The position numbers and the translations under genes are program-made. DNA of 64,000 bases from Ottowia sp. (GTDB taxonomy: Bacteria > Pseudomonadota > Gammaproteobacteria > Burkholderiales > Burkholderiaceae_C). Below are positions 8,218 through 56,666 of the stretch, one piece after another. Location of the stretch: contig NZ_JAXMEM010000012.1 in the NCBI RefSeq assembly GCF_046348305.1, forward strand, positions 35,618 through 99,617. The letters are read 5' to 3'. The notes under the pieces were generated by a model that did not search any database, was not told where the DNA came from, and was given only the letters and a program-made list of their open reading frames with translations. Every line of letters starts with the position of its first letter. Positions within the stretch are counted from its first letter, which is position 1.

Positions 8218-8901
8218 TCACCGCGCCAGCCGGTACGGCTCCTCGAACTCAATGAAGTCGTGCTCGGCCAACGCGGCGTCGATCCAGGCCTTGACGCCCG
8301 GCAACGCGCACACGCGGTCCATCCACGCCGTGATGACCGCCGGCGCCGGCAGAACGTAGGTCTTGAACCGCATCACCACCGGCGCAAAGTACGCATCGGC
8401 AATGCCGAACTCGCCAAACAGCATGGGACCGCCGTGCTGCGCCAGCAACTCCTGCCACATGGTCACCAGGCGGCCGACGTCGGCGCGCACGCCGGCGTTG
8501 TCGCGCCAGACGATGGCGCCCACCTCGGGCAGGCGCGCCTCGATGTTCATGCCGCAGGCGCTGCGCAGCGCACCGAAGCCCGAGTGCATCTCGGCGCAGA
8601 TGCTGCGCGCGCGGGCACGGGCGCGCACGTCGCGCGGCCACAGGTGGAGGTCGGGAAATTTCTCGGCCAGGTACTCGGCAATGGCCAGCGAATCCCACAC
8701 GGCGAAGTCGCCGTCCACCAGCAGCGGCACCTTGCCCGCCGGCGCCAGCCCGCCCAGGCGCCGCTTGAAGTCCGAGTCGCCCGAGAACGAATCAAAGCGC
8801 AGCTGCACCTCCTCGAACTCGATGCCGGCCTGCCTGAGCAGCACCCAGGGCCGCATGGACCAGGACGAATAGTTCTTGTTGCCGATGTAGAGCTTGAGCA
8901 T
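8218..8901 (-). CDS. Glutathione S-transferase family protein
   Basis: IGNKNYSSWSMRPW, GKVP, WDSLAIAEYLAE. Confidence 0.92.
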   Translation of the reverse strand: MLKLYIGNKNYSSWSMRPWVLLRQAGIEFEEVQLRFDSFSGDSDFKRRLGGLAPAGKVPLLVDGDFAVWDSLAIAEYLAEKFPDLHLWPRDVRARARARSICAEMHSGFGALRSACGMNIEARLPEVGAIVWRDNAGVRADVGRLVTMWQELLAQHGGPMLFGEFGIADAYFAPVVMRFKTYVLPAPAVITAWMDRVCALPGVKAWIDAALAEHDFIEFEEPYRLAR

Positions 8902-8958
8902 GGAAGATCTCCGTATTGCGCGGCGCTCATGCTAACGCGCCGACGCGCGCCCCGGGGT

Positions 8959-9930: not shown

Positions 9931-9972
9931 GTCAAACCTCCAAAATCGTGATGGGTGCAAGCGCAGTCTGAT

Positions 9973-10098
9973 TCAAGCTCGCCCACCCTGCATCGACCTT
10001 GCGCAAAGTCCAAGCATTGTCATGGTGTCAGGGGATCCCGCCTGCGCCAGCTTGCCCGGGCGCAGATCGGACAACACGTTGCGGTCGATCAGGTACAC
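9973..10098 (-). pseudogene. Truncated VapC/PIN toxin (N-terminal fragment only)
   Basis: GTG 3 nt after antitoxin stop reads MYLIDRNVLSDLRPGK (PIN start consensus YLLDTNVLSEL), loses similarity and stops after 41 aa. Confidence 0.7.
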
Positions 10099-16985: not shown

Positions 16986-16995
16986 TCTGTCGGAT

Positions 16996-17058
16996 GCTCT
17001 GATATCAATAGCTGCGCGCGCCCATCACAAGGGCACAAGCAGCCATTTCGACGTTCAA
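16996..17058. repeat. Repeat family A, diverged intergenic copy
   Basis: TCAATAGCTGCGCGCGCCC...GGGCAC...TTCAA between converging maeB and yceI-like genes. Confidence 0.6.
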
Positions 17059-17062
17059 GCGC

Positions 17063-17638
17063 TCACTGTCTGAACGCCTCGATGGTGGCCGTGATGCGCA
17101 CGTTCTTGGGCATGCCCGCGTCCACCAGATAGTTCATGCCCCATTGGGTGCGGTCGATCACCGCCTCGAAGTCGCCGCCGCAGGCCTCGGTCCTGGCGCG
17201 CTTGTTGGGGTAGCACTTGAATTGATTGGCCTTGAGCGTGACCGGCAGCGTGCGTCCCAGCAGCGTGAGCTGGCCGGGCACCTCGACGAGGCGCTCGCCG
17301 TCGAACACCAGCCGGTCCGAGACGAAGCGCATGGTCGGGTATTGGCGCGCGTCGAACAGATCGGGCGAGAGCAGATGCTCGTCAAAGCCCCGGGAGCCGC
17401 TGTAGACGCTGGCCACCTGCACGAACAGGTCGATGGCGCCCGCCTTGGCCACGGGGTCGAAGCGCACCGAGCCCGCCACCTCGTCAAAGCGCGCGCGGTT
17501 GACCGAGGCGCCAAAGTGGTCGATGGCGAAGGTGGCGTAGGTGTGATCGGCGTCCAGGGCATAGCGCGCCGGCTCGGCATGGGCCGCGCCAAAAACCAGC
17601 CAGGCCAGGCCGAGAAAGGTGGACAAATGTTTGCGCAT
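17063..17638 (-). CDS. YceI-family periplasmic lipid/isoprenoid-binding protein
   Basis: Signal peptide; YALDADHT, HLLSPDLFDARQYPTMRF, IDRTQWG. Confidence 0.9.
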   Translation of the reverse strand: MRKHLSTFLGLAWLVFGAAHAEPARYALDADHTYATFAIDHFGASVNRARFDEVAGSVRFDPVAKAGAIDLFVQVASVYSGSRGFDEHLLSPDLFDARQYPTMRFVSDRLVFDGERLVEVPGQLTLLGRTLPVTLKANQFKCYPNKRARTEACGGDFEAVIDRTQWGMNYLVDAGMPKNVRITATIEAFRQ

Positions 17639-17780
17639 GGGTCATCCTCCAAAGACAATGCCAATCGGCTCAGTATGGCGGCGCAGCCGTCCGCAAGCCT
17701 TGACCTGAGGCAGCTTCCCCGCCTTTGCCGGCCAGCAGTCAAGGCCGCAACCGGATCACCATAGGACCCTCATCGACCCC

Positions 17781-20462
17781 ATGAGCATCCGCAACCTCGA
17801 CTCGCTGTTCCATCCGCAATCGGTGGCGATCATCGGCGCCTCCGAGCGGCCGTTTTCGGCCGGCGCCGCGCTGTGGCGCAACATGCACGCCAGCGGCTTC
17901 CAGGGCGCGCTCTGGCCGCTCAACCCCAAATACGAGCAGCTGGCCGGCCAGCGCTGCTATGCCCGCGTGCGCGATCTGCCCGGCGTGCCGGAGCTGGCCG
18001 TGATCTGCACCCCGCCCGCCACGGTGGACGATCTGATCCGGCAACTGGCCCAGGCCGGCACCAAGGCCGCCGTGGTCATCAGCGCCGGCCTCACGCCCGA
18101 GCAGAAGCAGGCCATGCTGGACGCCGCGCGCCCCCGGCTGCTGCGCATCCTGGGGCCCGACTGCGTGGGCCTGCTGGCGCCGCACGCGCACCTGAACGCC
18201 AGCATCGCGCCCGCCGCGGCCCAGCCGGGCCAACTGGCCCTGGTCTCGCAGTCCGACGCGCTGGTCACCGCCATGCTGGACTGGGCGCAGGCGCGCAGCA
18301 TCGGTTTTTCGCACTTTGTCGCACTGGGCGAGCACGCCGACGTGGACGCTGCCGACGTGCTGGACTACCTGGCCAGCGACGCGCACACGCGCGCCATCCT
18401 GCTGTGCATCGAATCGATCGAGCACGCGCGCAAGTTCATGTCGGCCGCGCGCGCGGCGGCGCGCAACAAGCCGGTCATCGTGCTCAAGGCCGGGCGCAGC
18501 GCGCCGGGACAACAGGCCGCCGCCTCGCACACCGGCGCGCTGGCCGGCGCCGATGCCGTGCATGAAGCGGCCATTGCCCGCGCCGGCATGCTGCGCGTGG
18601 ACAGCCTGGAGCAGCTCTTTCTGGCCGCCGAAATTCTCACCCGCTTCAAGGCGCCCGTCGGCGCGCACCTGAGCATCCTCACCAACGCCGGCGGCGCCGG
18701 CGTGCTGGCCGCCGACGCGGCGGCGGCGCATGGCCTGCGCCTGGCCGATCCGGGCGCTGCGCTGCGCGGCGAGCTGGCCGCGGTGCTGCCGCTCCGCAGC
18801 CCCCTCGGCAACCCGGTGACCCTCGCCGCCGACGCGCCCGCGCCGTGCTACGCGGACGCGCTGCGGGCGCTGGCACGCCACCCCGAGGACAGCGGCACGC
18901 TGCTGTTCATCCATGCGCCCACCGCCATCGTGCCGGCCGCCGACATCGCGCGCGCCATGATTCCCGTCGCCCACCCTGCGCAGCAGCACGCGCTGCCCCT
19001 GGTGGCGGCGTGGATGGGGGGCCCGGCCGTCGCCGAAGCGCGCCAGCTGTTCATGCAGGCCGGCACCGCCTGCTACGACATGCCCGAGCAGGCGGTGGCC
19101 GCCATCGGCATGCTGCACGACTACGCGCGCAACCAGGCCGAGCTGACCGAAGCGCCACCGGCCGCACCACCGGGCCAGCCCGCGCCCGACACCGCCGCCG
19201 TGCGCCGCCTGGTCGCCACCGCGCTGGCCGAGGGGCGATCGTGGTTGAGCGAGCCCGAGTCCAAGGCCGTGTGCGCGGCCTACGGCATCCCCGTGGTGGC
19301 CACCCACCGGGTCGCCCCCGAGCCCGAAGCCGCCGCCGACGAGGCGGCGCGCATCGGCTTTCCGGTGGTGCTCAAGATCGTGTCGGCCGACGTCACGCAC
19401 AAGTCGGACGTGGGTGGCGTGGCGCTCAACCTGCAGGACGCCCAGGACGTGCGCACCGCTGCGCAGACCATGCTCGCGCGCATCGCCAAGACCCACCCGC
19501 AGGCGCGGCTGGAGGGCTTTGCCGTGCAGGCCATGGTGCGCAAGCCGCAGGCGCAGGAGCTGATCGTCGGCGCCAGCATCGACCCCGGCTTCGGCCCCGT
19601 GATCCTGTTCGGCCAGGGCGGCACGGCCGTCGAGGTGCTCAGGGACAGCGCCATGGCGCTGCCGCCGCTGAACGCCCCGCTGGCGCGCGCACTGATCGAG
19701 CGCACCCGCGTGGCGCGCCTGCTGGCCGGCTGGCGCGACGTGCCCCCGGCCGACCTGGACGCCGTCATCGCGACGCTGATGGCCGTGTCCCAGCTGCTCG
19801 CCGACGTGCCCGAGCTGGCCGAGCTGGACATCAACCCGCTGCTGGTGGACCACGCCGGCGCCATTGCGCTGGACGCGCGCGTGGGCCTGAGCGCCGCGCA
19901 ACCCGCGGGCGCCCGCCACTTCGCCATCGCGCCCTATCCGGCCGATCTCATCGAGACGGTGCAGTGGCAAGGCCGCACGCTCACGCTGCGCCCGGTGCGC
20001 CCCGAGGACGAAGCGCAGCACCGCGCCTTTCTGGAAAGCCTGGATCCCGGCGACATCCGCCTGCGCCTGTTCTACACCCGCCGCTACATGGAGCGCAGCG
20101 AGCTGGCGCGCCTGGTGCAAATCGACTACACGCGCGAGATGGCCTTCATCGCCACCGCGCCCGACGAGAACGGCCGCGAGCAAACCCTGGGTGTGGCCCG
20201 CGCCAGCGCCGACCCGGACAACCAGGGCGCCGAGTTCGGCATCATCCTGCGCCACGGCTTGAAGGGCGCGGGCCTGGGCCGTCGGCTGATGGACAAGCTG
20301 ATCGGCCACTTCCGCGCCGCCGGCACGCGCGAGATGACCGCCGTGGTGCTCAAGGAAAACCGCGCCATGCGCGAGCTGGGCCACGCGCTGGGCTTTTCCG
20401 ACCAGCCCTCGCCGGACGACCCCGACATCCGGCTGCTGACGCTGGAGTTGCAGGCGCCCTGA
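17781..20462 (+). CDS. Acyl-CoA synthetase (NDP-forming)-like / ATP-grasp / GNAT fusion (Pat/PatZ-type protein lysine acetyltransferase)
   Basis: PQSVAIIGAS, ILGPDCVG, SHTGALAG, PVVLKIVSADVTHKSDVGG, ELDINPL, C-terminal GNAT (GAGLGRRL). Confidence 0.9.
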   Translation: MSIRNLDSLFHPQSVAIIGASERPFSAGAALWRNMHASGFQGALWPLNPKYEQLAGQRCYARVRDLPGVPELAVICTPPATVDDLIRQLAQAGTKAAVVISAGLTPEQKQAMLDAARPRLLRILGPDCVGLLAPHAHLNASIAPAAAQPGQLALVSQSDALVTAMLDWAQARSIGFSHFVALGEHADVDAADVLDYLASDAHTRAILLCIESIEHARKFMSAARAAARNKPVIVLKAGRSAPGQQAAASHTGALAGADAVHEAAIARAGMLRVDSLEQLFLAAEILTRFKAPVGAHLSILTNAGGAGVLAADAAAAHGLRLADPGAALRGELAAVLPLRSPLGNPVTLAADAPAPCYADALRALARHPEDSGTLLFIHAPTAIVPAADIARAMIPVAHPAQQHALPLVAAWMGGPAVAEARQLFMQAGTACYDMPEQAVAAIGMLHDYARNQAELTEAPPAAPPGQPAPDTAAVRRLVATALAEGRSWLSEPESKAVCAAYGIPVVATHRVAPEPEAAADEAARIGFPVVLKIVSADVTHKSDVGGVALNLQDAQDVRTAAQTMLARIAKTHPQARLEGFAVQAMVRKPQAQELIVGASIDPGFGPVILFGQGGTAVEVLRDSAMALPPLNAPLARALIERTRVARLLAGWRDVPPADLDAVIATLMAVSQLLADVPELAELDINPLLVDHAGAIALDARVGLSAAQPAGARHFAIAPYPADLIETVQWQGRTLTLRPVRPEDEAQHRAFLESLDPGDIRLRLFYTRRYMERSELARLVQIDYTREMAFIATAPDENGREQTLGVARASADPDNQGAEFGIILRHGLKGAGLGRRLMDKLIGHFRAAGTREMTAVVLKENRAMRELGHALGFSDQPSPDDPDIRLLTLELQAP

Positions 20463-20488
20463 CGCTGCGCGCGGGGAACCGAAACTCC

Positions 20489-20596
20489 AACAGCCGGACG
20501 CAGAGGACGCAAAAAATTCCATTCATGAGGACCGGATCCAGATTGAAGTTTTCTGCGCCTTTTGCGAAACCTTTGCGTCCTCTGCGTCCGGCTGTT
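20489..20596. repeat. 108-bp element with perfect 25-bp terminal inverted repeats (family B)
   Basis: AACAGCCGGACGCAGAGGACGCAAA (20489-20513) / TTTGCGTCCTCTGCGTCCGGCTGTT (20572-20596). Confidence 0.85.
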
Positions 20597-20623
20597 CATG
20601 GTTTTTATCGGCCCCCGGTAAAT

Positions 20624-20682
20624 TACAAGCGGTTTCAGTCGCTCGCGCCCATCCCGTGCGTGCAAGCAGCTATCATTTTTGA
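20624..20682. repeat. Repeat family A, intergenic copy abutting a start codon
   Basis: ...GTGCAAGCAGCTATCATTTTTGA immediately before ATG 20683. Confidence 0.7.
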
Positions 20683-21915
20683 ATGAACCCTTCCATGTTT
20701 CCGCGCGCCGCGCTGCTGGCCTTGTGCGCCGCCTGGGCGCTGCCCGGCGCGGCGCAGGACGCGCCCGCGCCCAGCCTCGACCCCGCCGAATTCAAGACCT
20801 GCCTGAGCCAGCTGCAGGGTACGCCGGCGTTTCGCGCCATCACGGCGCAGACCTTTGCCGAGCAGACCCGCACGCTCGCACCCGACCCCTCGGTGCTGGT
20901 GCTGCTCAATCGCCAGCCCGAGTTCACCATGCCGGTGTGGGACTACATGGCCGTGCTGGACGACGCCGAGCGCGTGCAGGACGGGCGGGCGGCCTTTGCC
21001 AAGTGGCAGGATGTGCTGCAAAAGATCGAGGCGCAGACGGGCGTGCCCGCCGCCATCATCACCGGCGTATGGGGCGTGGAGAGCAATTTCGGCCAGAACC
21101 TGGGCGGGCGCCCGCTGGTGCAGTCGCTGGCCACGCTGTCGTGCTTCGGGCGCCGGCAGGCCTACTTTCGCGGCGAGTTCGCGGCGGCGCTGCGCATCAT
21201 CCAGGAGGGCCACATCGCGCCCGACAAGCTGACCGGCTCCTGGGCCGGCGCGTTCGGGCAGACGCAGTTCATGCCCAGCACCTTTTTTGCCAACGCGGTG
21301 GACTTCGACGGTGACGGGCGGCGCGACATCGTGGACAGCGTGCCCGACGCGCTGGCCTCGACCGCCAAATTCCTGCAAAACGCCGGCTGGCGGCGCGGCG
21401 AGCCCTGGGGCTTTGAAGTGCGCCTGCCCAAGGGCTTCGACAGCTCGGGCGCAAGCCGCAAGGCCAAGCAGCCCATCGCCACCTGGCAGCGCGCCGGCCT
21501 GACGCTGGCGGATGGCCAGCCCCTGCCGGGCGATCTGCCCAGCGCCGGCCTGATGATTCCGGCCGCCGGCGGCCCGGCCTTTCTGGTAGGGCGCAACTTC
21601 GACGCGCTGTACCGCTACAACGCCAGCGAGAACTACGCCCTGGCCATCGCCCACCTGGCCGACCTGATCGCCGACCCGCAGGCGCCCCTGGCCTTTGCCA
21701 CGCCCTGGCCCACGGACGATCCGGGCCTGTCGCGCGCCGAGAACCGCGAGCTGCAAACCCTGCTGCTGGCGCGTGGCCACGACATCGGCACGGCCGACGG
21801 CATGATCGGCGCCAAGACGCGCGAGGCCATCAAGGCCGAGCAGCAAAGGCTGGGCGTCAAGGCCGACGGGCGCGCCGGCCAGAAGCTGCTGGCCGCGCTC
21901 AGAAAAGCGGATTGA
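20683..21915 (+). CDS. Lytic murein transglycosylase (MltB/SltB-like) with C-terminal PG-binding domain
   Basis: Signal peptide; WGVESNFG, GSWAGAFGQTQFMPS, YNASENYA, DGMIGAKTR. Confidence 0.92.
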   Translation: MNPSMFPRAALLALCAAWALPGAAQDAPAPSLDPAEFKTCLSQLQGTPAFRAITAQTFAEQTRTLAPDPSVLVLLNRQPEFTMPVWDYMAVLDDAERVQDGRAAFAKWQDVLQKIEAQTGVPAAIITGVWGVESNFGQNLGGRPLVQSLATLSCFGRRQAYFRGEFAAALRIIQEGHIAPDKLTGSWAGAFGQTQFMPSTFFANAVDFDGDGRRDIVDSVPDALASTAKFLQNAGWRRGEPWGFEVRLPKGFDSSGASRKAKQPIATWQRAGLTLADGQPLPGDLPSAGLMIPAAGGPAFLVGRNFDALYRYNASENYALAIAHLADLIADPQAPLAFATPWPTDDPGLSRAENRELQTLLLARGHDIGTADGMIGAKTREAIKAEQQRLGVKADGRAGQKLLAALRKAD

Positions 21916-23829
21916 TCACGAAGTCGATTCGGCGGCCGCCGCACGCGGCGCATTGAGCACGAAGGCATCGGAGAAACACGCGCCCTCTTCCAGCCCGTGC
22001 GACAAAAAGGCGGGCACCGCCGTCTGCACCATCATGGTGGAGCCGCAGGCGTACAGCTCCTGCCCGCGCATGTCGGGAAAGTCCTCCAGCACCGCCTGGT
22101 GCACCAGGCCGCGGCGGCCCTCCCAGCCGTCGCCCGGCGCGCCATCGGACAGCACCGGGATGAAGCGGAAGTTGGCGTGCTCGCACTGCCAGGTTTCGGC
22201 CAGATCGCGCATGTACAGGTCGGACACCTGGCGCACGCCCCAGTACAGGCGCATGGGCCGCGTGATGCCGCGCGCAAAGGCGTCCTCGATGATGCTCTTG
22301 ACGGGCGCAAAGCCCGTGGCCCCCGCCAGAAAGACGATGGGGCGCTCGCCTTCGCGCAGCGTGAAGCGCCCCAGCGGCCCCTCCAGGCGCAGCGTGTCGC
22401 CCACCTGCATGCCGTCGAACACATGGCCGGTGAAGCGCCCGCCCGGGATGCGCCGCACGTGCAGGTCGATCAGCGGGCGCTGCATCGGCGGGTTGGCAAA
22501 CGAGAAGGCGCGGCGCTCGCCGTCCTCCAGGATCACGTTCAGGTACTGGCCGGCGATGAAGTCCAGCTTCAGGTCGGCCGGGGGTTGCAGCAACAGGCGC
22601 ATCACCTCGGGCGCCAGGCGTTCCATGCTGACCACGGTGGCGCTGAACTCTTGCTTGATCAGGGGCTCCAGGGTTTCGACCTCGATCTCCAGGTCCTCCA
22701 GCGGCACGGCACAGCACATCAGCGCCTGGCCGCGCTCGCGCATGGCCTCGGTCAGCGTGGCGGGCTGATACGGGCCGTGGTCGAACTTGCCGTTGAGCAC
22801 CGTGCACACGCACAGCCCGCAGCCGCCGGCGCGGCAGTCGTATTGCAGCGGCAGCTCGGCGCGCAGGCCGGCCTCCAGGATGGTCTCGCCGCGGCGCGCC
22901 GACACGTGGCGCGCATCGGGATGCACGGTCACGTTCAGGGTGCGGGCCGCGCCGCCCGCGCGCCGCCACACCAGCCAGGGTTGCACCAGCAGCAGGCCGG
23001 TCACGCCCAGCACCAGCGCCCAGGTCCAGGCCGGCCCCCAGGCGTGCACCAGCGGGTACAGGCCCAGCAGCAGCCAGTCGAGCTTGAGCTGGCTGGGCAC
23101 CACGGCCATGTGCGCGGGGCCGCCCTGGCTGACGACGGGCAGCACCAGCGCCAGCACCAGCAGCATCACGCCGGCACTGACGGCGATCGGCTTGGGCGGC
23201 TGCATGGCCGCCTTGGGCACGCGCTGCACGTGCACCCACATCAGCAGCAGCGTGAGCAGCGGCACGCCGATGTGGATGAACACCAGCAGCGAAAACAGGC
23301 GATCGCTCACGGTGCTGTCGTAGATGAAGTTGCGGATCAGCGAGCCGCGGAACAGCGGAATCCAGTCCAGCCACTCGAAGCTGGTGGTGGTGACGAACTG
23401 GGCGAGCTGGTCCCAGGGCAGCATGTAGCCGTTGGCGCCGGCGGCATACACCAGCCAGATCAGCGCCACGCCCGTGACCCACGAGAACGCACGGAAGCCG
23501 CGCAGCCGGTCGAACGCGAAGTAGCGCAGCATGTGGATCACCATGGTCACCACCATGGCGTCCGAGGCGTAGCGATGCACGCTGCGCACGATGCCGCCGA
23601 TGAACCACTGCCGGTGCGTGAGCCCCTCCACCGACTGGTAGGCCCCCGTCACGCTGGTGTCGAAGAAGGCAAACAGGTACAGGCCGGTGCCGGCGACGAT
23701 CCAGAACAGGAAGAAGGTCAGCGGACCCAGGTGGTAGTAGGGGTTCAGGCGGTCGCCGAAGGCGCGGTTGAAGACCGCCTCCACCCGCATGAAGCCCCAG
23801 CGCATCAGCGCCTGCAGCCGACCGATCAT
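21916..23829 (-). CDS. Diheme cytochrome b fused to [2Fe-2S] ferredoxin and FAD/NAD(P)-binding reductase
   Basis: HRYASDAMVVTMVIH and HIGVPLLTLLLMWVH His pairs (14 apart), GYMLPWDQ; CRAGGCGLC...C; RRAFSFAN, AGATGFAP, YACG. Confidence 0.85.
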   Translation of the reverse strand: MIGRLQALMRWGFMRVEAVFNRAFGDRLNPYYHLGPLTFFLFWIVAGTGLYLFAFFDTSVTGAYQSVEGLTHRQWFIGGIVRSVHRYASDAMVVTMVIHMLRYFAFDRLRGFRAFSWVTGVALIWLVYAAGANGYMLPWDQLAQFVTTTSFEWLDWIPLFRGSLIRNFIYDSTVSDRLFSLLVFIHIGVPLLTLLLMWVHVQRVPKAAMQPPKPIAVSAGVMLLVLALVLPVVSQGGPAHMAVVPSQLKLDWLLLGLYPLVHAWGPAWTWALVLGVTGLLLVQPWLVWRRAGGAARTLNVTVHPDARHVSARRGETILEAGLRAELPLQYDCRAGGCGLCVCTVLNGKFDHGPYQPATLTEAMRERGQALMCCAVPLEDLEIEVETLEPLIKQEFSATVVSMERLAPEVMRLLLQPPADLKLDFIAGQYLNVILEDGERRAFSFANPPMQRPLIDLHVRRIPGGRFTGHVFDGMQVGDTLRLEGPLGRFTLREGERPIVFLAGATGFAPVKSIIEDAFARGITRPMRLYWGVRQVSDLYMRDLAETWQCEHANFRFIPVLSDGAPGDGWEGRRGLVHQAVLEDFPDMRGQELYACGSTMMVQTAVPAFLSHGLEEGACFSDAFVLNAPRAAAAESTS

Positions 23830-25253
23830 GCCGGCACCTCCATGGACCGGGCCCGCATGGCGCGCAGCACCACGACGACGAACAGCAGGCCGCCGATCAC
23901 GGCCAGCAGCCCGCCCAGGCCCATCAGGCCCATGCCGGCCACCTCGGCCGTGCTGCGCAGCACCTGCTCGCTGCCGGCCACCTTGCGCTGCACGCCATAG
24001 CCGCCCGACCAAACCAGGCCGATGATGTGCATCAGCTGCCCCGCGCCATACAGCCAGGGCTGCCACACCGCCATGCGCCCGCGCGGCGCGCTCCAGCCCA
24101 GCGTGGGCAGCAGGTGATAGACGATGCCCATCAGCGCCAGCGTGACGCCCACGATGCAGCCGTGGTAGTGCGCCGGAATCTTGACGTTGCTGCCGCTGAT
24201 CAGCATGCCGATCACGCCGCCGCAGGCGAACAGCAGCATGGAGCTGACCAGCGCGCCCCACAGCGGCCTTTGCTCATCGCGCAGCCGGCGCAGCGGCGCC
24301 AGTGCCAGCACCACGGCCAGCGCGATGGGAAAGATCGCCAGCCCGCCCCCAACGCGCATGGCCCAGGTGTGCAATTGGCGGTTTTCCACGCTGACGGCGT
24401 CATACGCCACATAGGCGTAGGGCGTGATGAACACGCTGACCAGCGCCAGCATGAGCAGCAGCAAGGCGATGCGCGGGCTCAGCAGCACCCGCCCGCCGCA
24501 GGCATGGGCCAGCCACAGCCACACCACCAGCATCAGCAGCGTCCAGGCAAACTGCAAGGCGTGGCCACCGCCCCAGAAGAGGATCTCGTAATAGGTGCGC
24601 AAATCCATGCGGGTGGGCACCGCGGCAAACGACCAGGCAAAGGCCAGCAGCGCCACGGCCACGCACACCACGCTGGCACTCAACCCGAAGCGCAGCGCGC
24701 GCTCGCCGTCGATCACGCCGCCCAGGCGCGGGGCGGCCAGCAGGCTGCGCAGCACCTGCACGCCCAGGCCCAGGCCAAAGACGACCAGCCCGGCCAGGAA
24801 CAGCGGCCCGTGCAACACCGGGATGTAGTTGGCCATGATGGCCTCGCCCGGGCGGATGAAGGCGCCCAGCGCCATCAGCACCGTGCCGCTGCCGCACAGG
24901 CCCAGGGCGGCCCAACTCCAGCCGAGGCCGCGCTCGGTGGTGTTCAGGCTCCACAACATGCCCGCCATGGCGGCAAACCACACCAACACCGACAAATCCA
25001 CGTGCACCACCAGTGCCACGCGAAAAAAGTCGGCAACCGGAAACCACTGGTTGACGCCCGGCGTGCGCGCCAGCACCAGCAGCACCGAATAGAGGCCCGA
25101 GCCAGCCAGCGCCGCCAGCCCCAGCGCCAACCAGGCCCGCGCCAGCGCGCGCTGGGCGGTGGTGGGCTGCGGCAAGGTGTAGGCGGCAGGCTCTGCCGTG
25201 CGCGGCGCGTACAGCGCGTGGGGATCGAAAATGGCTTGTGCAGGGTGATTCAT
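23826..25253 (-). CDS. Heme-copper oxidase subunit I-like paralog with degenerate binuclear site
   Basis: ~12 TM; LVVHVDL, ILFWGGGHALQF, IPAHYHG; only one His (QLHTW) where the HH pair is expected. Confidence 0.75.
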   Translation of the reverse strand: MNHPAQAIFDPHALYAPRTAEPAAYTLPQPTTAQRALARAWLALGLAALAGSGLYSVLLVLARTPGVNQWFPVADFFRVALVVHVDLSVLVWFAAMAGMLWSLNTTERGLGWSWAALGLCGSGTVLMALGAFIRPGEAIMANYIPVLHGPLFLAGLVVFGLGLGVQVLRSLLAAPRLGGVIDGERALRFGLSASVVCVAVALLAFAWSFAAVPTRMDLRTYYEILFWGGGHALQFAWTLLMLVVWLWLAHACGGRVLLSPRIALLLLMLALVSVFITPYAYVAYDAVSVENRQLHTWAMRVGGGLAIFPIALAVVLALAPLRRLRDEQRPLWGALVSSMLLFACGGVIGMLISGSNVKIPAHYHGCIVGVTLALMGIVYHLLPTLGWSAPRGRMAVWQPWLYGAGQLMHIIGLVWSGGYGVQRKVAGSEQVLRSTAEVAGMGLMGLGGLLAVIGGLLFVVVVLRAMRARSMEVPA

Positions 25254-25336
25254 ATCAATCTTCCAGGGTGCTGCCAAGCGCCGGGGGCGCCGCAAACCCA
25301 AAGCGCCCATTGGCCGCCGAGCGGGCCATGACAGCG

Positions 25337-25406
25337 AACGCCGTGGCCGGACCTGCGCCGGCCACAGGCGTTGCCCCTCCTCCAGGCGCAGCGCCAGAGA
25401 GGAGGG
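25337..25406. repeat. Two GC-rich intergenic hairpins inside the respiratory cluster
   Basis: AACGCCGTGGCCGG/CCGGCCACAGGCGTT (25337-25372); CCCTCCTC/GAGGAGGG (25375-25406). Confidence 0.65.
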
Positions 25407-25436
25407 AAGGCGCGCAGCGACGCAGGGAGGTGTTCA

Positions 25437-25970
25437 TTAGAACGTGATGCCGCCCTTCTCGGCGTTGTAGTCGATCACCAGGACTTGATTGGGTTTGAGC
25501 GTCACCGTGTCCTCGAGCTGCGCCGTGAAACCCGGAGCGCGTGCGTCGTCCTTCATGCGAACGGCAATTTTTTGTTCCCCGGCCGGCACCTGGACCCGCC
25601 GATATACCGCGGAGGCGCCATCGCGCTTCAGGCCACTGGGCTCGGCCGTCTCTTGCAGCACGCGCCGGCCGTTGATGTCCACCTCGATGCTGACGGGCGA
25701 GCGCTCGCGCGGGCAAATCTGCTTGGGACGCATCTGCGGGGGCAGCTTGGCCTTTTCTTCCTCGGTCAGGGGGCGGCAGTCGCCCACCGGCTTGCCGGTG
25801 TGCGTGAAGCTGATCTTGATCAGCGCATCGCCCGGCGGCAGCGGGTGGTAGACGGGCCAGTGCGAGAACACGCCGATGAACACGGCAAACAAGACGTACA
25901 GCAGCGCCTGGCCCAGCCATGCCCCCACGGAAACGCGATGGCGCGAAGGATCGACGGTGGAGGCATTCAT
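25437..25970 (-). CDS. Membrane-anchored hypothetical protein, coupled to the cytochrome b-MvhD gene
   Basis: One N-terminal TM, two Cys (DCRP, QICPRERSP); ATG overlaps upstream stop. Confidence 0.7.
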   Translation of the reverse strand: MNASTVDPSRHRVSVGAWLGQALLYVLFAVFIGVFSHWPVYHPLPPGDALIKISFTHTGKPVGDCRPLTEEEKAKLPPQMRPKQICPRERSPVSIEVDINGRRVLQETAEPSGLKRDGASAVYRRVQVPAGEQKIAVRMKDDARAPGFTAQLEDTVTLKPNQVLVIDYNAEKGGITF

Positions 25971-27562
25971 GTGGACAACTCGAGGGCGGATGGGGTGCGC
26001 TCGCGCGCCGACTGCGGGCCGCGCCAACGATCGAGGATGGGTGCGATGGCATCGGCATCCCGCGCACCGGACCAGACCATGGCCCAGCGTTCGCGCGGCA
26101 CGGTGGGCCGCAGGCGGGGCTCGCGCACGCCGTGCAGGCGCTCGTGCAACAGCGTGGCGCCGTCGCGGAACGCGCAGTGGCCGGGCGCGCACGCCTGCAC
26201 GAGCACGCCGGCGGCGCCGTCGCGCAGCGCGTATTCGACGAAGGCGGGCGGCAACTGGCCGACGCACAGCAATTCGATGGCCACCACGTCGGGCGCCAGC
26301 AGGCAGGCCGGCGGCGGCACGTGGGCGCAGCGAAAGGCCACGATGGATCGGGCCGCGGGCGCAGCCTGCAGCCGCTGGCGCAACTGCTCGCGCAGTGTGT
26401 TGACCGGCAACTGCGGCATGTCGATGCCGCTTTGCAAATCGGCCACGCTGCGAAATGGCGTCGCCGATGGGCAGGCGCCGGCGCAGATGCCGCAGCGCGC
26501 GCAGCGCTCGGCATCGACCACGGCCAGCTCATGACCGGGCTTGCCGCTGGGGTGCGCGACCATGCCGATGGCGGCGTAGGGGCAGTCATCGACGCAGCGC
26601 CGGCAGCCGCTGCAATAGTCGGGATCGACCCGGGCCGCGGGCGCGTCCTCGCGGCGGTGCGGCATGAAGGGCAGCCACAGCAGACCGGCCAGGGCGCCAC
26701 CCAGCACAACCCAGGCGAGCCCGCCCGACAGCGCGTCGGCCATGGGGTGGACAAACAGCAGCAACCAGTCCAGCCGCAGCGCGGCGGGCACCCGGGTCAT
26801 GTCGGCCGCCGGACCGCTGACCACGGGCGTCACGGTGGCCAGCCCCACGAACATGGCCAGCAGACCCAGGGCCAGCGGCTGCGGCGGCACGACGCGCGCG
26901 CGCGGCAGGCGCTGGATGTGAAACCACAGTCCGAACGTCATCAGCAGCGCCACGCCCAGATGCACGAAGACGAACAGCGAGAACAGGCGGTCGCCCACCG
27001 TGTCCAGCGACAGGAAGTTGCGCGCCAGCGGCGTGGTCAGCCCCGGCAGGGCGTCCAGCCATTCGGCGGTGGCCAGGGCCGAGTACTGGCCCAGCTCGTC
27101 CCAATTGAGCCAGAAGCCGCCGATGCCGCAGACAAAGGCAAACACGATGAGCGGCACGCCGGTGAGCCAGCTGAAGCGGTGATGGGCGCGAAAGCGCCCA
27201 TGCAGCCATTCGCGCAACGCGTGCAGGCCCATCAGCAGCACGAAGGCATCGGCCGCGTAGCGATGCACGCTGCGCAGCCAGCCACCGTAGAACCAGGGCC
27301 ACGCGGCCAGGCGCTCGATCGAGGCGTGGGCGCCGGCGGCCGAGGTGTCGATGACGGCGTACAGGTAAATGCCGCTGGCCGCCAGCGTCCAGAAGCACAG
27401 AAAGGCCATGCTGCCCAGGTGATGCAGCGGATTGAGCGCCGGCCACGTCCAGCGGTCGATGCCGCGCTCGAGCGCTTGCCAGGCAGCCAGGGCGCGCCCT
27501 GGCGCTGCCGGAGCCCCGGCGCGGCGCGGCACCGGCGCGGGCAGGACAGCGGCGGCATTCAA
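25967..27562 (-). CDS. Diheme cytochrome b fused to 2x[4Fe-4S] ferredoxin and MvhD/FlpD-like domain
   Basis: TTG start overlapping SCO stop; HRYAADAFVLLMGLH, HLGVALLMTFGLWFH; CSGCRRCVDDCP, CARCGICAGACP; IVAFRC..LLCVGQ..GVLVQACAPGHCAF. Confidence 0.82.
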   Translation of the reverse strand: MNAAAVLPAPVPRRAGAPAAPGRALAAWQALERGIDRWTWPALNPLHHLGSMAFLCFWTLAASGIYLYAVIDTSAAGAHASIERLAAWPWFYGGWLRSVHRYAADAFVLLMGLHALREWLHGRFRAHHRFSWLTGVPLIVFAFVCGIGGFWLNWDELGQYSALATAEWLDALPGLTTPLARNFLSLDTVGDRLFSLFVFVHLGVALLMTFGLWFHIQRLPRARVVPPQPLALGLLAMFVGLATVTPVVSGPAADMTRVPAALRLDWLLLFVHPMADALSGGLAWVVLGGALAGLLWLPFMPHRREDAPAARVDPDYCSGCRRCVDDCPYAAIGMVAHPSGKPGHELAVVDAERCARCGICAGACPSATPFRSVADLQSGIDMPQLPVNTLREQLRQRLQAAPAARSIVAFRCAHVPPPACLLAPDVVAIELLCVGQLPPAFVEYALRDGAAGVLVQACAPGHCAFRDGATLLHERLHGVREPRLRPTVPRERWAMVWSGARDADAIAPILDRWRGPQSARERTPSALELST

Positions 27563-28455
27563 TGCAGGGCCTCCGCAGGCACCGGTGCGCTCCGGCGCAC
27601 TTGCCGGCGGGCGCGCCGATGGCGCCGCCATTCGAGCACGAAGTACCCGATCATCCACACGAAGAACACCATGCCGCCAACGATCTCCATCACCAGCGCG
27701 TACTTGAAGCGGTAGGTGCCGGTCTCCGGGTCGTATACGGTGCACAGGATGCGCACGCGTTCGAGCAGGCCGGCCAGCGTCTCGCGCTGGGTGACGGGCG
27801 CGCGGCCCAGCAGCTGGCGCAGTGGCTCGCCGAGCTGCTGCGCCGTCAGTTGGTCGCCCCAGACCTGGGTGGCGATCTTGCCCTCGGCATCCAGCACGGT
27901 GACGCCCAGGATGTGATCGAAGCCCGCCGGCGTGGCCAGGTAGCTGAAGCCGAAGCTGCGCGTGAGCGGCTCCACGATCTTGGCGTGCGGGCTGAGGAAC
28001 TCCCAGTTGGGGTACTTGATGCCGTACTGCGCGGCAAACGAGCGCAGCGCCACCGGCGAGTCGGCCGGCTGGTTGAAGCCGATGCTGACGACGTTGAACT
28101 GGCCCGGGCTGAGCAGCTGGTCCAGCCCCTTGACGGCTTCGTGCAGGTTGCGCGTGCTGGTGGGACAGATCTCGAAGCAGCCGGTGTAGATGAAGCTCAC
28201 CAGCAACGGCTTGCCCCGGTATTGGGACAGCCGCACCGGCTTGCCCTGGCGGTCGAGCAAGGTGAAGTCGGGCGGCGTCGTGCCGATCACGGCCTGGCCG
28301 GCGGCCAGCGCGGCGGTGGCGTCCAGGCGGGGCACGGTGCTGGCCACGGCGTCGTCCGCCTGCGCCCATCCGGCGGCGCCCAGCAGGGGGAGCACGCCTG
28401 CCAGCGTCCACAGCATGCGTTGCACACGCTGGGCCAGCCCGGTCACCGCTTTCAT
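27559..28455 (-). CDS. SCO-family copper chaperone with C-terminal TM extension
   Basis: YTGCFEICP CxxxC, conserved His in GFDHIL, thioredoxin fold. Confidence 0.88.
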   Translation of the reverse strand: MKAVTGLAQRVQRMLWTLAGVLPLLGAAGWAQADDAVASTVPRLDATAALAAGQAVIGTTPPDFTLLDRQGKPVRLSQYRGKPLLVSFIYTGCFEICPTSTRNLHEAVKGLDQLLSPGQFNVVSIGFNQPADSPVALRSFAAQYGIKYPNWEFLSPHAKIVEPLTRSFGFSYLATPAGFDHILGVTVLDAEGKIATQVWGDQLTAQQLGEPLRQLLGRAPVTQRETLAGLLERVRILCTVYDPETGTYRFKYALVMEIVGGMVFFVWMIGYFVLEWRRHRRARRQVRRSAPVPAEALH

Positions 28456-28513
28456 CCGCACGTTCAAGCTCCGAACCGCCACGGCCAGCGCCGCGGCGAT
28501 CAACGGGCCACGC

Positions 28514-30214
28514 TCAACTGAGGCCCCACAGGGTGGACAGGTACTTCCAGTTGATGAAGTAGTACAGCACGAAGGCCACCAGGAACACCATGGCCAGCAC
28601 GAAGGTGCCGGGGGCCGCAAAACCGGCCGAACCGGCGGTTTGCGCCACCACGGTGGGGGCGGTGCGCGGGATCGGCGTGAAGGTGGCGCGCTCGGCGCCG
28701 CGTTCGAGCTTCTTGCCCCACAACAGCGAACCGACGGTGACGTAAATGTAGATCGCGCCACCGGCAATTGCCGCCACGCCGCCGATGCCCACCAGGCCCA
28801 TCATCAGGTAGGCGGCGCCCGGCCATTCGTAGGCCAGCGGGTTGCCGCTGAAGGCCATGTCCCAGTGGCGACGCGACACGCCCAGGGTGCCGGCGCCCAT
28901 CATCACCAGGCAGAAGAAGTACATCGAGAAGCCGAAGATGTACGGTTGCCACTTGGCCAGCTTGGGCGCGATCATCTCGCGCTTGAACAGCACCGGGATC
29001 AGGTAATACGTCAGCGCCATGAAAGTCAGCGTGGTGCCCACGACGACGGTGGCGTGAAAGTGGCCCGGCACATAGATCGTGTTGTGGATAATCATGTTGA
29101 GCTGCTCGGTGCCCATCATCACGCCCGAGATGCCGCCCAGGAAGCCAAAGCCGATGATCGAGATGAACACGCCCGAGAACGTGGGGTTGCCCCAGGGCGC
29201 CTTGCGCAGCCACTCGAACAGGCCCTTGGTGAAGCCCTTTTGCCGCTGCGCCACTTCCATCGCGCCGGGCACCGTCAGGCCGTGCAGCATCGAGGCCAGC
29301 ACCGCGAAGTACATGAAGTAACTGGTGTTGACGATCTTCCAGGGCGTGGACAGGCCCGGGTCGGCCAGCAGGTGGTGTGCGCTGGCCAGCTGGAGGAACA
29401 AGATGTAGAGCAAAAACGCCGTGCGGCTGACGCGCTCGCTCATCGGCTTGGCGCCGAAGACGACCGCTGCCACCAGATACCACACCGAGATGTGCGCGGC
29501 CACGTTGATCTGCTGCGAGGAGTGTCCCAGCGCCCACCAGATGGTGCGGTAGGCCAGCGGATCGACCTGCTTGATCAGGCCGATGGACATCAGCCAGGTC
29601 GGGATCAGGATGATGGCGCCCGACAGCAGGGTGAACACCGCAATGATGGCCGCCGTGATGGCGCCCATGGTGACCAGCGGCACCGAGCCCTGATAGGTGC
29701 GGTCGCGCTTGGCGACGACCAGGGTGCCGAAGAACACGCCGCATCCGATCAGCGCGCCGACGGCGAACAGGATGATGGTCAGATAGAACCAGGACGAGGC
29801 CATCATGGGCACGTAGCTGGTCATCATGACGCTGGAGCTGCCCTGGAACACGACGATGTTGTTGCCCACCGAGCCGATCACCATCAGCGCAAAGGCCAGC
29901 CAGGCGAGCTTGGGTGTGGCAATGCGGCAGCGCAGCAAGGTGGAGGCGCAGAAGTACAGGATGGCGATCTCAAAGAAGATCAGCCAGAAGATCAGCATGT
30001 CCAGGCCATGGGCCGTGAGCACCATGTAGAAGGTGTCGGCCTCCAGCCAGTGCACCGCCGGCCAGCGCGTGAGCACCACGCCGATGGCCAGCAGGCCGCC
30101 GAAGGCCAAGAACAGCACGCCGGCGACGGCGTTCCACATGATGAGTTTTTCGGCCTGCGCTTCAAATTGCAGGCCCGATCGCGGGCAGGTGCGATAGGTG
30201 GTGGCTTGTCCCAT
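28514..30214 (-). CDS. Heme-copper oxidase superfamily subunit I, B-family-derived, eNOR-like (Gln at cross-link Tyr position)
   Basis: TAHG, WWALGHSSQQ, SAHHL, PGHFHAT: all six His present; H+4 residue is Q, not Y. Confidence 0.85.
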   Translation of the reverse strand: MGQATTYRTCPRSGLQFEAQAEKLIMWNAVAGVLFLAFGGLLAIGVVLTRWPAVHWLEADTFYMVLTAHGLDMLIFWLIFFEIAILYFCASTLLRCRIATPKLAWLAFALMVIGSVGNNIVVFQGSSSVMMTSYVPMMASSWFYLTIILFAVGALIGCGVFFGTLVVAKRDRTYQGSVPLVTMGAITAAIIAVFTLLSGAIILIPTWLMSIGLIKQVDPLAYRTIWWALGHSSQQINVAAHISVWYLVAAVVFGAKPMSERVSRTAFLLYILFLQLASAHHLLADPGLSTPWKIVNTSYFMYFAVLASMLHGLTVPGAMEVAQRQKGFTKGLFEWLRKAPWGNPTFSGVFISIIGFGFLGGISGVMMGTEQLNMIIHNTIYVPGHFHATVVVGTTLTFMALTYYLIPVLFKREMIAPKLAKWQPYIFGFSMYFFCLVMMGAGTLGVSRRHWDMAFSGNPLAYEWPGAAYLMMGLVGIGGVAAIAGGAIYIYVTVGSLLWGKKLERGAERATFTPIPRTAPTVVAQTAGSAGFAAPGTFVLAMVFLVAFVLYYFINWKYLSTLWGLS

Positions 30215-30224
30215 GGTGCGTCCC

Positions 30225-30767
30225 TCAGTCCTTGATGTACATGCGGCCCACCATGGTGTGGTGGCCAATTCCACAGAACTCGTTGCACACGATCGAGATC
30301 TGGCCCGACTGGTTGGGCGTGATGGTCAGCACGTGCTCGAAGCCCGGCACCAGCTGGATGTTGATGTTCTGCGGCTGCAGCGAGAAGCCGTGGTTGTAGT
30401 CCATGGCCGTCAGATGCAGGCGGTATTTCTCGCCCTTCTTCAGCTCCAGGATGGGCCAGAAGTTCCACAGCCGGCCCAGCATGTAGACGTCGCTGCCCGG
30501 CGGCGGGGCCACCACGGGCGTGTTTTGCTCGCCTTCGGTGCGCACCGTGTACTTGTCGACCACGGCCTGCGCCTTGGCCGTGAACTTCTCGGGCGTGGTG
30601 CGGTAGGTCTCGGTCGACAGGTTCTGGTTGCCCCAGACGTGCCAGCCGACCATCATGACGAACATGATCAGGCACCAGGTCAGCGACAGCACGATCCACG
30701 TGCCTTCGACCCGGTCGATGGGATGCTTGTACCAAAGCCGCTCGGGCGGCGGAAGAATGGCGCTCAT
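30225..30767 (-). CDS. Heme-copper oxidase subunit II with CuA site
   Basis: Single TM; DYNHGF and CNEFCGIGHHTM CuA motif; no CxxCH. Confidence 0.92.
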   Translation of the reverse strand: MSAILPPPERLWYKHPIDRVEGTWIVLSLTWCLIMFVMMVGWHVWGNQNLSTETYRTTPEKFTAKAQAVVDKYTVRTEGEQNTPVVAPPPGSDVYMLGRLWNFWPILELKKGEKYRLHLTAMDYNHGFSLQPQNINIQLVPGFEHVLTITPNQSGQISIVCNEFCGIGHHTMVGRMYIKD

Positions 30768-30807
30768 GGTGTGGAACCTCGGGGTGGAAAGGCGATCGGA
30801 CCGGGGC

Positions 30808-30972
30808 TTACTTGCCCAGGGGCAGCATCATGATTTCGACCACGCCCCACAGGTTGTAGACCAGCATGGGAATCAGCACGCCCAGGAACAGCAGGATGAA
30901 GGGGCTGTCCAGCAACTGCTGCATCCAGGGAATGGGTTCGTTGGGGTCGTTCAGGTCGTCTTTCTGGCTCAT
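30808..30972 (-). CDS. Small single-TM oxidase subunit (IIa-like, 54 aa)
   Basis: MSQKDDLNDPNEPIPWMQQLLDSPFILLFLGVLIPMLVYNLWG; first gene of operon; GGAGGG RBS. Confidence 0.7.
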   Translation of the reverse strand: MSQKDDLNDPNEPIPWMQQLLDSPFILLFLGVLIPMLVYNLWGVVEIMMLPLGK

Positions 30973-31121: not shown

Positions 31122-32066
31122 ATGACGCCCACCGCCCCCAGCGCCAGCAGCCCCCCGTCCGACCCCGACGCGCGCGATCCGGCACGCCGACTGCGCCGCA
31201 TGGCCCGGCTGTGCGCCGCGCTGGTGCTGGCGATCATCACGCTCAGCGCGTGGCTGCGCCTGGCCCGATCCGGCATTGGCTGCGCGGACTGGCCGGCCTG
31301 CTACGGAGCGGTGTGGCAAGCGGCCGCCCCCGCGCTGCCGGCCGGCGCCGAGACGTCCGCCACGGTTCTCGCCGTGCGGCTGGCGCACCGCGTGCTGGCG
31401 GTGGCCGCGCTGGTCTTGATCGTCGTCATGCTGGCCAGCGCGTGGCCGCCGCGCCGGCACGGGTGGCGACCGGCGCTGGAAGCCGGCGCGCTGCTGGCCG
31501 TCACCCTGGGCCTGGCCGTGCTGGGGGCCCTGGGCGCGCAGTCGCTGCTGCCGGCGGTGGCGCTGGGCAACCTGCTGGGCGGCTTTGCCATGCTGGCCCT
31601 CAGCCTGCGCCTGGCCAGTGGCCGGCCCATCGACGCCGGAACCGGCGCTCGCGTCTGGCTATGGGCCGCGTTCGGGCTGGTGCTGCTGGAAACCGCACTG
31701 GGCGGCCTGGCCAGCGCCAGCGGTTCCCTGCTGGCCTGCGACGGCCTGAGCGATTGCTGGGCAGAGGCACAGGACGGGCCCGCATGGAGCGCGCTGAACC
31801 CCTGGCACGCCCCAGCGCTTGGCGGCGGCGCCGGCGTGCAATGGGCGCACCGGCTGGGCAGCTGGCTCGTGCTCTTGCTGGCTGCGCCGCTGGCCTGGCG
31901 CCTGCGCCCGCACGATCGGCGCGGCGCCGCGGCTGTGCTGGCCTGCCTGCTGCTGCAAGCCGCACTGGGGCCGCTGATGGCGAGCGCCGGCTATCCGATG
32001 GCGCTGGTGCTGGCGCACAACGTGCTGGCGGCCTTCACGCTGGCCTTGCTGGCACGCTGGCTCTGA
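31122..32066 (+). CDS. COX15/CtaA-family heme A synthase-like protein
   Basis: GCADWPAC, LAHRV, ACDGLSDC, WAHRLG, LAHNV; 8 TM pattern. Confidence 0.8.
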   Translation: MTPTAPSASSPPSDPDARDPARRLRRMARLCAALVLAIITLSAWLRLARSGIGCADWPACYGAVWQAAAPALPAGAETSATVLAVRLAHRVLAVAALVLIVVMLASAWPPRRHGWRPALEAGALLAVTLGLAVLGALGAQSLLPAVALGNLLGGFAMLALSLRLASGRPIDAGTGARVWLWAAFGLVLLETALGGLASASGSLLACDGLSDCWAEAQDGPAWSALNPWHAPALGGGAGVQWAHRLGSWLVLLLAAPLAWRLRPHDRRGAAAVLACLLLQAALGPLMASAGYPMALVLAHNVLAAFTLALLARWL

Positions 32067-56641: not shown

Positions 56642-56666
56642 GGGTAAGCATGTTTCCTTCGTGATG

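Follow-up and report, generated by a model that had tools for sequence, protein, structure and literature searches.

Introduction

In Mvh-Hdr complexes, MvhD sits between MvhG and the ferredoxin domain of HdrA, and FlxABCD-HdrABC and other NAD(P)H modules dock via an MvhD-like subunit. Cytochrome b proteins of the bc-type superfamily are dimers. Both elements were found in a single gene of Ottowia sp., at positions 25967-27562 (minus strand) of a 64,000-nucleotide stretch of contig NZ_JAXMEM010000012.1 (contig positions 35,618 to 99,617; the whole stretch is hereafter the window). The 531-aa product, hereafter the target, combines a cytochrome b (helices A-F) with a 2x[4Fe-4S] ferredoxin and an MvhD/FlpD-like domain, and its operon encodes a heme-copper oxidase (HCO) resembling sNOR. 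Enzymes of the sNOR type have been proposed as N2O sources in nitrifiers, denitrifiers and wastewater, and their electron supply and substrate (NO or O2) are debated (PMC11214002, PMC6967387). For ammonia oxidisers, the gene arrangement norS-norY-senC-orf1 has been published (PMC4940428, PMC3764937).

The target gene was locked in synteny with a CuA-containing, tyrosine-less HCO, an SCO protein and a transmembrane (TM) beta-sandwich protein. Its six N-terminal helices match a diheme bc1/b6f-type cytochrome b, and its tail is predicted to hold two [4Fe-4S] sites and a distal MvhD-type [2Fe-2S] site. It is tentatively proposed, at a little short of an even chance, that the target is a Rieske-less transmembrane electron-input subunit, through which electrons of NAD(P)H would pass via [2Fe-2S], 2[4Fe-4S] and two b hemes to the sNOR-type HCO.

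Results

The target gene starts with a TTG codon at 27562, with GGAGG 7 nt upstream. This TTG overlaps the TGA of the SCO gene upstream (TTGA), and the stop codon (TGA at 25967-25969) overlaps the ATG of the next gene (ATGA). The G+C content of the window is ~70%, which produces long open reading frames (ORFs) in all six frames; third-position GC favoured the minus-strand frame for 25967-27562. By the same codon-position GC analysis, two other ORFs over the target were rejected as non-coding products of high G+C, one on the plus strand (25919-27715, 598 aa) and one on the minus strand (25255-26754, 499 aa). An earlier reading of the DNA letters (the original prediction) had placed a gene with three modules at 25967-27562; the minus-strand gene matched these coordinates exactly, and all three modules were found by Pfam.

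The cytochrome b domain (26663-27445, minus strand, aa 40-300) has six TM helices and was matched by Cytochrome_B (PF00033) at aa 40-212 (E 2e-14). The 2x[4Fe-4S] ferredoxin domain (26462-26635, minus strand, aa 310-367) was recognised by Pfam Fer4 families, with two matches inside aa 311-366 (E 2.7e-10). The MvhD/FlpD-like domain (26018-26350, minus strand, aa 405-515), which carries the putative [2Fe-2S] ligands, was matched by PF02662 at aa 423-510 (E 1.5e-12, 48.0 bits vs. a cut-off of 22.3). PDB profile searches agreed for each part, with cytochrome b6 as best match of the N-terminal part (E 2.4e-32), the C-terminal ferredoxin domain of HdrA (5odc_A, residues 558-631) for the middle part, and MvhD (9sw2_D, residues 22-129 of 141, E 2.2e-13) for the C-terminal part, which also matched 5odc_D (E 2e-10) and 7bkb_F. 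In NCBIfam, aa 306-511 aligned to positions 568-762 of the 777 positions of the HdrA2 model (NF040770, E 1.6e-21). The target is not a full-length HdrA2 (76 bits vs. a cut-off of 1100), the flavin/thioredoxin-reductase-like core being unmatched. The cytochrome part was partially like ExtP and cytochrome b6, both far under the family cut-offs; for the ExtP equivalog (NF040969) the score was 76.7 bits vs. 290.

Putative heme ligands are H100/H114 and H201/H215, each pair spaced as H-x13-H. The ferredoxin motifs are C317-x2-C-x2-C-x3-C-P (C317/320/323/327) and C354-x2-C-x2-C-x3-C-P (C354/357/360/364), and the MvhD-type cysteines are C412, C433, C458 and C463. Across 38 family members with 23-61% identity (alignment A2), the four heme histidines, the eight ferredoxin cysteines and C412, C433 and C458 were invariant, and C463 was kept in at least 90% of the sequences. 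Such conservation of the predicted cofactor ligands is far beyond chance. In a single-sequence search, C433, C458 and C463 aligned with the MvhD cysteines of 9sw2_D, 5odc_D and 7bkb_F. With three of the four cysteines aligned, and with the Pfam and PDB profile scores given above, the predicted MvhD-like C-terminal domain was confirmed as a true MvhD/FlpD homologue. Among distant homologues examined that have the ferredoxin domain, 8/9 also had the FlpD domain in Pfam; the FlpD match was absent at E <= 1e-5 from P0131 and from P0200, the latter ending ~70 residues into that region. Separately, His48 (27425-27427, motif N-P-L-H-H-L-G) aligned with the heme cn-binding Cys of b6f in the cytochrome b6 alignment; the residue is His in close relatives and is not conserved family-wide.

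The AlphaFold2 (AF2) model of the target had a predicted local distance difference test score (pLDDT) of 88 and a predicted template modelling score (pTM) of 0.87. In the model, aa 401-510 formed a block of pLDDT 86-96 with four strand-helix units in which strand and helix alternate. Foldseek superposed ~285 columns of the model onto helices A-F of bc1 cytochrome b (root-mean-square deviation 4.4-5 A), and the search with the whole model listed cytochrome b chains only. The loops after helices B, D and F are Arg-rich or basic. The N-terminus and the ferredoxin-MvhD tail are predicted to lie in the cytoplasm, because the positive-inside rule and the bc1 helix A-F topology of the model both place them there.

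More than 2000 database proteins matched the target at E <= 1e-5, and the top 120 all had the same architecture. An exhaustive search of 1.84 billion representatives returned 411 clusters at E <= 1e-30, many of them spanning the cytochrome through MvhD at 26-50% identity. When one genome per species was scanned with alignment A3, relatives turned up in at least 486 species genomes. The family is widespread and not an oddity of this genome. The target DNA itself recurs in metagenomes from activated sludge and bioreactors. An identical protein at NCBI bears the automatic name 'hydrogenase iron-sulfur subunit [Ottowia sp.]', which is misleading for the family.

Synteny was assessed with tblastn, using the eight window proteins, in the best 80 of the loci from these at least 486 species genomes, and each partner was counted only in loci whose contig extends far enough. 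These 80 loci came from Burkholderiales (three isolates included), Rhodocyclales (Accumulibacter included), Lysobacterales, other Gammaproteobacteria and two Alphaproteobacteria, and the window gene order was repeated in nearly all of them. Piscinibacter caeni MQ-18, Simplicispira lacusdiani and Curvibacter sp. PAE-UM are culturable carriers of the gene family. The 177-aa protein encoded directly downstream of the target (p177) was present in 78/78 assessable loci, SCO in 76/79, HCO subunit I in 67/69, HCO subunit II in 58/59, a 54-aa TM protein in 56/57, a second HCO-like protein in 70/75 and a cytochrome b-FNR fusion in 60/65. A heme O synthase gene (ctaB/UbiA) lay between subunit I and SCO in 66/80 loci. 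In the window no such gene occupies that interval (28456-28513), nor is one found there in the closest relatives L001-L003; tblastn across the 64-kb window found no ctaB. NirS-like genes occurred within 10 kb at 9 loci at >=38% identity, with 8 further, weaker matches.

The window operon comprises eight minus-strand genes, the target being the fifth, and several stop and start codons overlap; the operon is translationally coupled. The order is the 54-aa TM protein, CuA subunit II, HCO subunit I, SCO/SenC, the target, p177, the second HCO-like protein and cytochrome b-[2Fe-2S]-FNR. HCO subunit I (28514-30214, minus strand; PF00115, E 2.3e-61) is of the B family. In alignment to Aquifex and ba3 oxidases it retains the six canonical His, and in alignment A4 its cross-linked Tyr is replaced by Gln inside an invariant GHSSQQ. 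Loss of this Tyr characterises the NOR families that descend from B-type oxidases (PMC11214002). HCO subunit II (30225-30767, minus strand) carries the CuA motif C-N-E-F-C-G-I-G-H-H-T-M, with a partial TIGR02866 match and a NosZ CuA domain. Judged by the Tyr loss, the six His and the CuA partner, subunit I appears sNOR-like.

The paralogue of the target, cytochrome b-[2Fe-2S]-FNR (21916-23829, minus strand), was matched by PF00033, Fer2, FAD_binding_6 and NAD_binding_1, and its reductase module is BenC/MmoC-like. The two cytochromes had been described as paralogous, which is borne out by 48% identity over 190 aa (E 7e-58).

The p177 gene (25437-25970, minus strand) encodes an N-in TM helix and a periplasmic beta-sandwich. 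Pfam and NCBIfam gave no match to it. Its AF2 model (pLDDT 92.5) predicts the beta-sandwich, for which no PDB fold match was found at E <= 1e-3; the best was CBM20 at E 6.8e-3, a generic beta-sandwich. Conserved motifs are G113-x3-D117 and G131. A redox-active Cys pair was considered and rejected, the two Cys being kept in just 20/42 and 24/42 sequences.

The second HCO-subunit-I-like protein (23826-25253, minus strand) is divergent and has 12 TM helices. It was matched by PF00115 at 51.6 bits and related to the sNOR-like subunit I by hhalign with a probability of 99.6. In alignment A5 it retains the low- and high-spin heme His (H84, H362/H364) and one CuB His (H231, in FWGGGHALQF); two CuB His are lost, with Tyr/Ala at the helix-VII His-His position. 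E290-H291 is invariant. A PDB sequence search found no relative, and the protein has no subunit II of its own. It may represent an undescribed HCO family with a rebuilt active site.

The SCO1/SenC copper chaperone (27559-28455, minus strand; PF02630, E 2.1e-13) carries a CxxxC motif and combines an N-terminal signal sequence with a C-terminal TM anchor, a conserved helix (aa 255-273) followed by a basic cytoplasmic tail. This combination is unusual among SCO proteins and is also seen in locus L020. The operon opens with the 54-aa single-TM protein (30808-30972, minus strand), probably one of the small subunits of the HCO; in the distant loci L081, L082 and L086 its place is taken by short ORFs of 44-53 aa. 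A heme A synthase gene, COX15/CtaA (31122-32066, plus strand; PF02628, E 3e-26), is divergently transcribed.

Hydrogenase, Hdr, formate dehydrogenase, Rieske and cytochrome c domains were all missing from a Pfam sweep of 38 of the ~41 window ORFs. Within those 38 ORFs the original prediction was right that no hydrogenase or HdrA is in view, the MvhD-like domain being detached from both, and its description of the system as Rieske-less stands. An NtrY-like sensor kinase and an NtrX-like response regulator are encoded at 55931-59468 (minus strand), 26 kb from the cluster. Crp/Fnr regulators were found at 22 related loci, unlike the window cluster, which no Crp/Fnr-type regulator adjoins.

Many distant homologues are ~700 aa long and carry a p177 homologue as a C-terminal extension of the target architecture; p177 aligned with the extension of P0128 at 35% identity (E 3e-36). 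Given these fusions, the two window genes form one functional unit. In P0196 a target-type cytochrome b is fused to a second HCO-like protein, which forms the C-terminal half and is 60% identical to the window copy, and a NirS-like gene follows; in P0195 the cytochrome b is joined to a flavodoxin/FAD/NAD reductase (CPR-like). Locus L081 runs NirK-like, small protein, COX2, COX1, small protein, cytochrome b-ferredoxin-MvhD-p177, NuoF-like, second cytochrome b-ferredoxin-MvhD-p177, rhodanese, second COX1, UbiA, SCO. Its NuoF-like gene (Complex1_51K, SLBB, NADH_4Fe-4S) overlaps both neighbouring fusion genes. On the same low-GC contig, a Rieske/cytochrome b set, which includes a multiheme cytochrome c and a GltD-like NAD(P) oxidoreductase, adjoins this module; the NuoF-like gene and this set lie at 8724-10019 and 16003-21349. 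In L082 the fusion protein is accompanied by a Crp regulator, CtaA, a cupredoxin, c-type cytochromes, NirS, SCO, UbiA, COX1 and COX2, and the minimal core of L086 consists of a small protein, COX2-like, COX1, SCO and the fusion protein, with nothing else. The gene tables of L081-L086 held no Pfam domain of hydrogenase, formate dehydrogenase or HdrA. NAD(P)H-oxidising modules (FNR-type, NuoF-like and CPR-like) repeatedly accompany these cytochromes. The earlier description of the target as a cytoplasmic entry port is a reasonable reading, both from the predicted topology and from the NuoF-like NADH module wedged between two such proteins in L081.

Wastewater and sludge metatranscriptome contigs matched the target with zero mismatches and crossed the SCO/target junction, consistent with co-transcription of the two genes.

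Discussion

If the target is the electron-input subunit proposed here, low-potential cytoplasmic electrons would dock and enter at the MvhD-type [2Fe-2S] site. In the window their source would be NAD(P)H, oxidised by the Fer2-FNR module of the paralogue, and elsewhere a NuoF-like FMN subunit would deliver them. The two [4Fe-4S] clusters would then relay them to the n-side heme, from which they would cross the membrane to the p-side heme; electrons go downhill when they move from ferredoxin-type clusters to b hemes, but not in the opposite direction. The p-side heme would hand electrons to the HCO (CuA/low-spin heme), with the periplasmic domain of p177 possibly acting as a docking piece. Reduction of NO (or O2) could in this way be driven directly by cytoplasmic reductant, with no Rieske protein, cytochrome c1 or soluble cytochrome c.

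The target may act as a dimer, perhaps paired with the FNR-bearing paralogue in the window and with itself in minimal clusters. A heterodimer is plausible and is compatible with clusters of the window type and the L081 type, each of which encodes a pair of paralogous cytochromes. Minimal clusters have one cytochrome b, and a heterodimer is therefore not obligatory for the family. A broader proposal takes the whole cluster as a respiratory or detoxifying supercomplex not recognised before, an NAD(P)H:NO (or O2) oxidoreductase that would bypass quinone, bc1 and cytochrome c. Two Rieske-less cytochromes b (as a hetero- or homodimer), one flavin-wired to NAD(P)H and the other with an MvhD/2x[4Fe-4S] port, would feed the sNOR and a second enzyme with a rebuilt CuB site. 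This is considered possible but doubtful.

Several observations weigh against the electron-input role. No published experiment was found on any family member. The CuA site of subunit II is intact, and CuA in known enzymes is fed by periplasmic cytochrome c or cupredoxin; the HCO is therefore not obviously in need of a cytochrome b donor. In L082 a cupredoxin and c-type cytochromes stand beside the module. The ef loop of the target reads L-D-W-L at the PEWY position (L-D265-W266), and this conserved D-W hints at a quinone site, which would be superfluous for a direct donor. As for the fusions, P0196 is known from a single 3.9-kb contig, and the SCO-cytochrome b fusion P0200 was dropped as evidence, as it has no TM helix between its periplasmic SCO domain and the cytoplasmic N-terminus of its cytochrome b and is perhaps a gene-calling artefact.

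Transcript levels weigh in the same direction. In three runs, RNA contig depth over the two HCO genes (28419-30822) was 50-100x that over SCO, the target and the downstream genes (25400-27800); contig depth is a crude measure, and the highly conserved subunit I may draw reads from relatives. Scanning for terminators and promoters turned up nothing convincing within the operon, including between the HCO genes and SCO/target. The gap could reflect attenuation, unequal mRNA stability or reads that cross-map from relatives. In Nitrosomonas europaea under O2 limitation, NE0681, the gene after senC, was 2.2-fold up (senC 2.7, norY 5.5, norS 10.8), and it stood at ~1/5 to 1/7 of the transcripts per million (TPM) of norY/norS (PMC6967387 supplement). 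The lower transcript level of the target and of NE0681 therefore argues against a 1:1 catalytic subunit.

The alternative that survives best, judged unlikely all the same, is coupling to quinone. Both cytochrome b fusions would then be Rieske-less NAD(P)H (or ferredoxin):quinone oxidoreductases, or quinol oxidases with a Qo-like pocket, and the HCO would be fed by periplasmic carriers. Helices E-F and the ef loop are retained, and D265 and W266 are kept in at least 90% of sequences (family consensus x-D-W-F-Y), but the Pro and Tyr of PEWY are not conserved. The partial match of the cytochrome b domain to ExtP fits this alternative, as do the intact CuA and the L082 carriers, and four-helix diheme cytochromes often anchor the iron-sulfur 'wires' of dehydrogenases to quinone (PMC5600118). 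However, it leaves unexplained the near-obligate synteny with HCO, SCO and p177, and likewise the cytochrome b-HCO-like fusion, and a non-pumping NADH:quinone route within one oxidase operon would bring little gain where complex I exists.

A role in biogenesis or repair is improbable. The target would here act sub-stoichiometrically, moving reductant across the membrane for HCO maturation (to SCO/CuA Cys, to copper, or as electrons for CtaA), which would suit an apparent transcript level far under that of the HCO genes. SCO adjoins the target in 76/79 loci, ctaB is found in 66/80, and ctaA is present in both the window and L082. In eukaryotes, heme A is made with the help of a [2Fe-2S] ferredoxin and an FNR-type reductase, a system that the Fer2-FNR module of the paralogue resembles. 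Against this, p177 has no conserved thiol pair (Cys kept in 20/42 and 24/42), the topology of the SCO fusion P0200 is doubtful, maturation of ordinary CuA oxidases requires no such proteins, and three independent NAD(P)H modules (FNR, NuoF-like and CPR-like) look like devices for catalytic flux.

A reverse or bifurcating scheme, in which quinol oxidised at a Qo-like site would send one electron to the HCO and the other via the b hemes and iron-sulfur clusters to NAD(P)+ or ferredoxin, is very improbable: it can draw on the NAD(P)-binding modules attached to bc-type cytochromes b, on the precedent proposed for anammox Rieske/cytochrome b complexes with NAD(P)H-forming subunits (PMC5600118, PMC12954380) and on the anammox-like Rieske/cytochrome b/GltD-like set adjoining the L081 module, but the cluster has no Rieske or other obvious high-potential acceptor at the Qo site, the hosts are activated-sludge heterotrophs with no evident need for reverse electron flow, and b hemes could reduce ferredoxin-type clusters only by a strongly uphill transfer.

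A dedicated cytochrome b with an MvhD-type port, in at least 486 species genomes, offers a concrete handle on the electron supply of sNOR. Should the electron-input role hold, aerobic or denitrifying Proteobacteria would have reused a connector of 'anaerobic' electron bifurcation. The family would then also preserve, in living organisms, a stage postulated for the origin of bc complexes (PMC5600118), in which cytochrome b served a dehydrogenase as its membrane anchor. The supercomplex, if real, would give a role to 'orf1', which has long lacked one in the sNOR clusters of nitrifiers and denitrifiers. Meanwhile, the misleading automatic name spreads through the annotations of metagenome-assembled genomes.

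Comparison with known systems

None of the modules of the target is new, and databases list the family under automatic names. Literature searches found no study on an architecture of cytochrome b, MvhD and heme-copper enzyme, or on an sNOR with a cytochrome b/ferredoxin electron donor. The closest counterpart of the C-terminal domain is MvhD/FlpD of Mvh hydrogenase-HdrABC (5ODC chain D, 9SW2 chain D), which is homologous and has Cys at aligned positions; in the target model, strands and helices alternate over this domain. MvhD/FlpD is a free subunit in Mvh-Hdr, whereas in the target it forms the C-terminal domain of a membrane cytochrome b. The hydrogenase or formate dehydrogenase and HdrA partners typical of MvhD are not encoded near the target, and an NAD(P)H module is the likely partner. 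HdrA2 of Methanosarcina, an HdrA-MvhD fusion, has in common with the target the tandem order of 2x[4Fe-4S] ferredoxin then MvhD; the flavin-containing HdrA core is missing from the target, with a cytochrome b in its place. In FlxABCD-HdrABC an MvhD-like subunit links an NAD(P)H flavoprotein to an iron-sulfur chain, a logic also suggested by the NuoF-like gene of L081 and the FNR module of the window. The acceptor there is heterodisulfide reductase and here would be a transmembrane diheme cytochrome, and no Flx or Hdr subunits are found at the target.

With bc1/b6f cytochrome b the target shares the four His, the H-x13-H spacing, superposable helices A-F and a D-W at the PEWY position, but it has no helices G-H, heme cn Cys, Rieske or cytochrome c1/f, and cytoplasmic iron-sulfur domains are added. 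NOX/ferric reductases and MsrQ offer a functional analogy, as electrons of NAD(P)H cross over two stacked b hemes to an outside acceptor; their fold is unrelated to the bc-type cytochrome b of the target, whose entry wire would be iron-sulfur clusters and not flavin alone.

The norS-norY-senC-orf1 genes of ammonia oxidisers have the same order as the L086 core, namely a CuA subunit II, a tyrosine-less B-type subunit I, SenC/SCO and one more gene. By gene position, the nitrifier orf1 (e.g. NE0681, Nmul_A2664) may correspond to the target family; the matches listed for the target include no named nitrifier. Nothing relevant was found in the literature on NE0681 or NE0686, and the PMC6967387 supplement leaves the NE0681 product unnamed. 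The window cluster has p177, the second HCO-like protein and cytochrome b-FNR in addition. Set beside these systems, the target is best filed as a membrane-anchored dehydrogenase-type cytochrome b with an MvhD connector, and the possibility that the cluster as a whole constitutes a new kind of NAD(P)H-driven heme-copper reductase system is a serious one.

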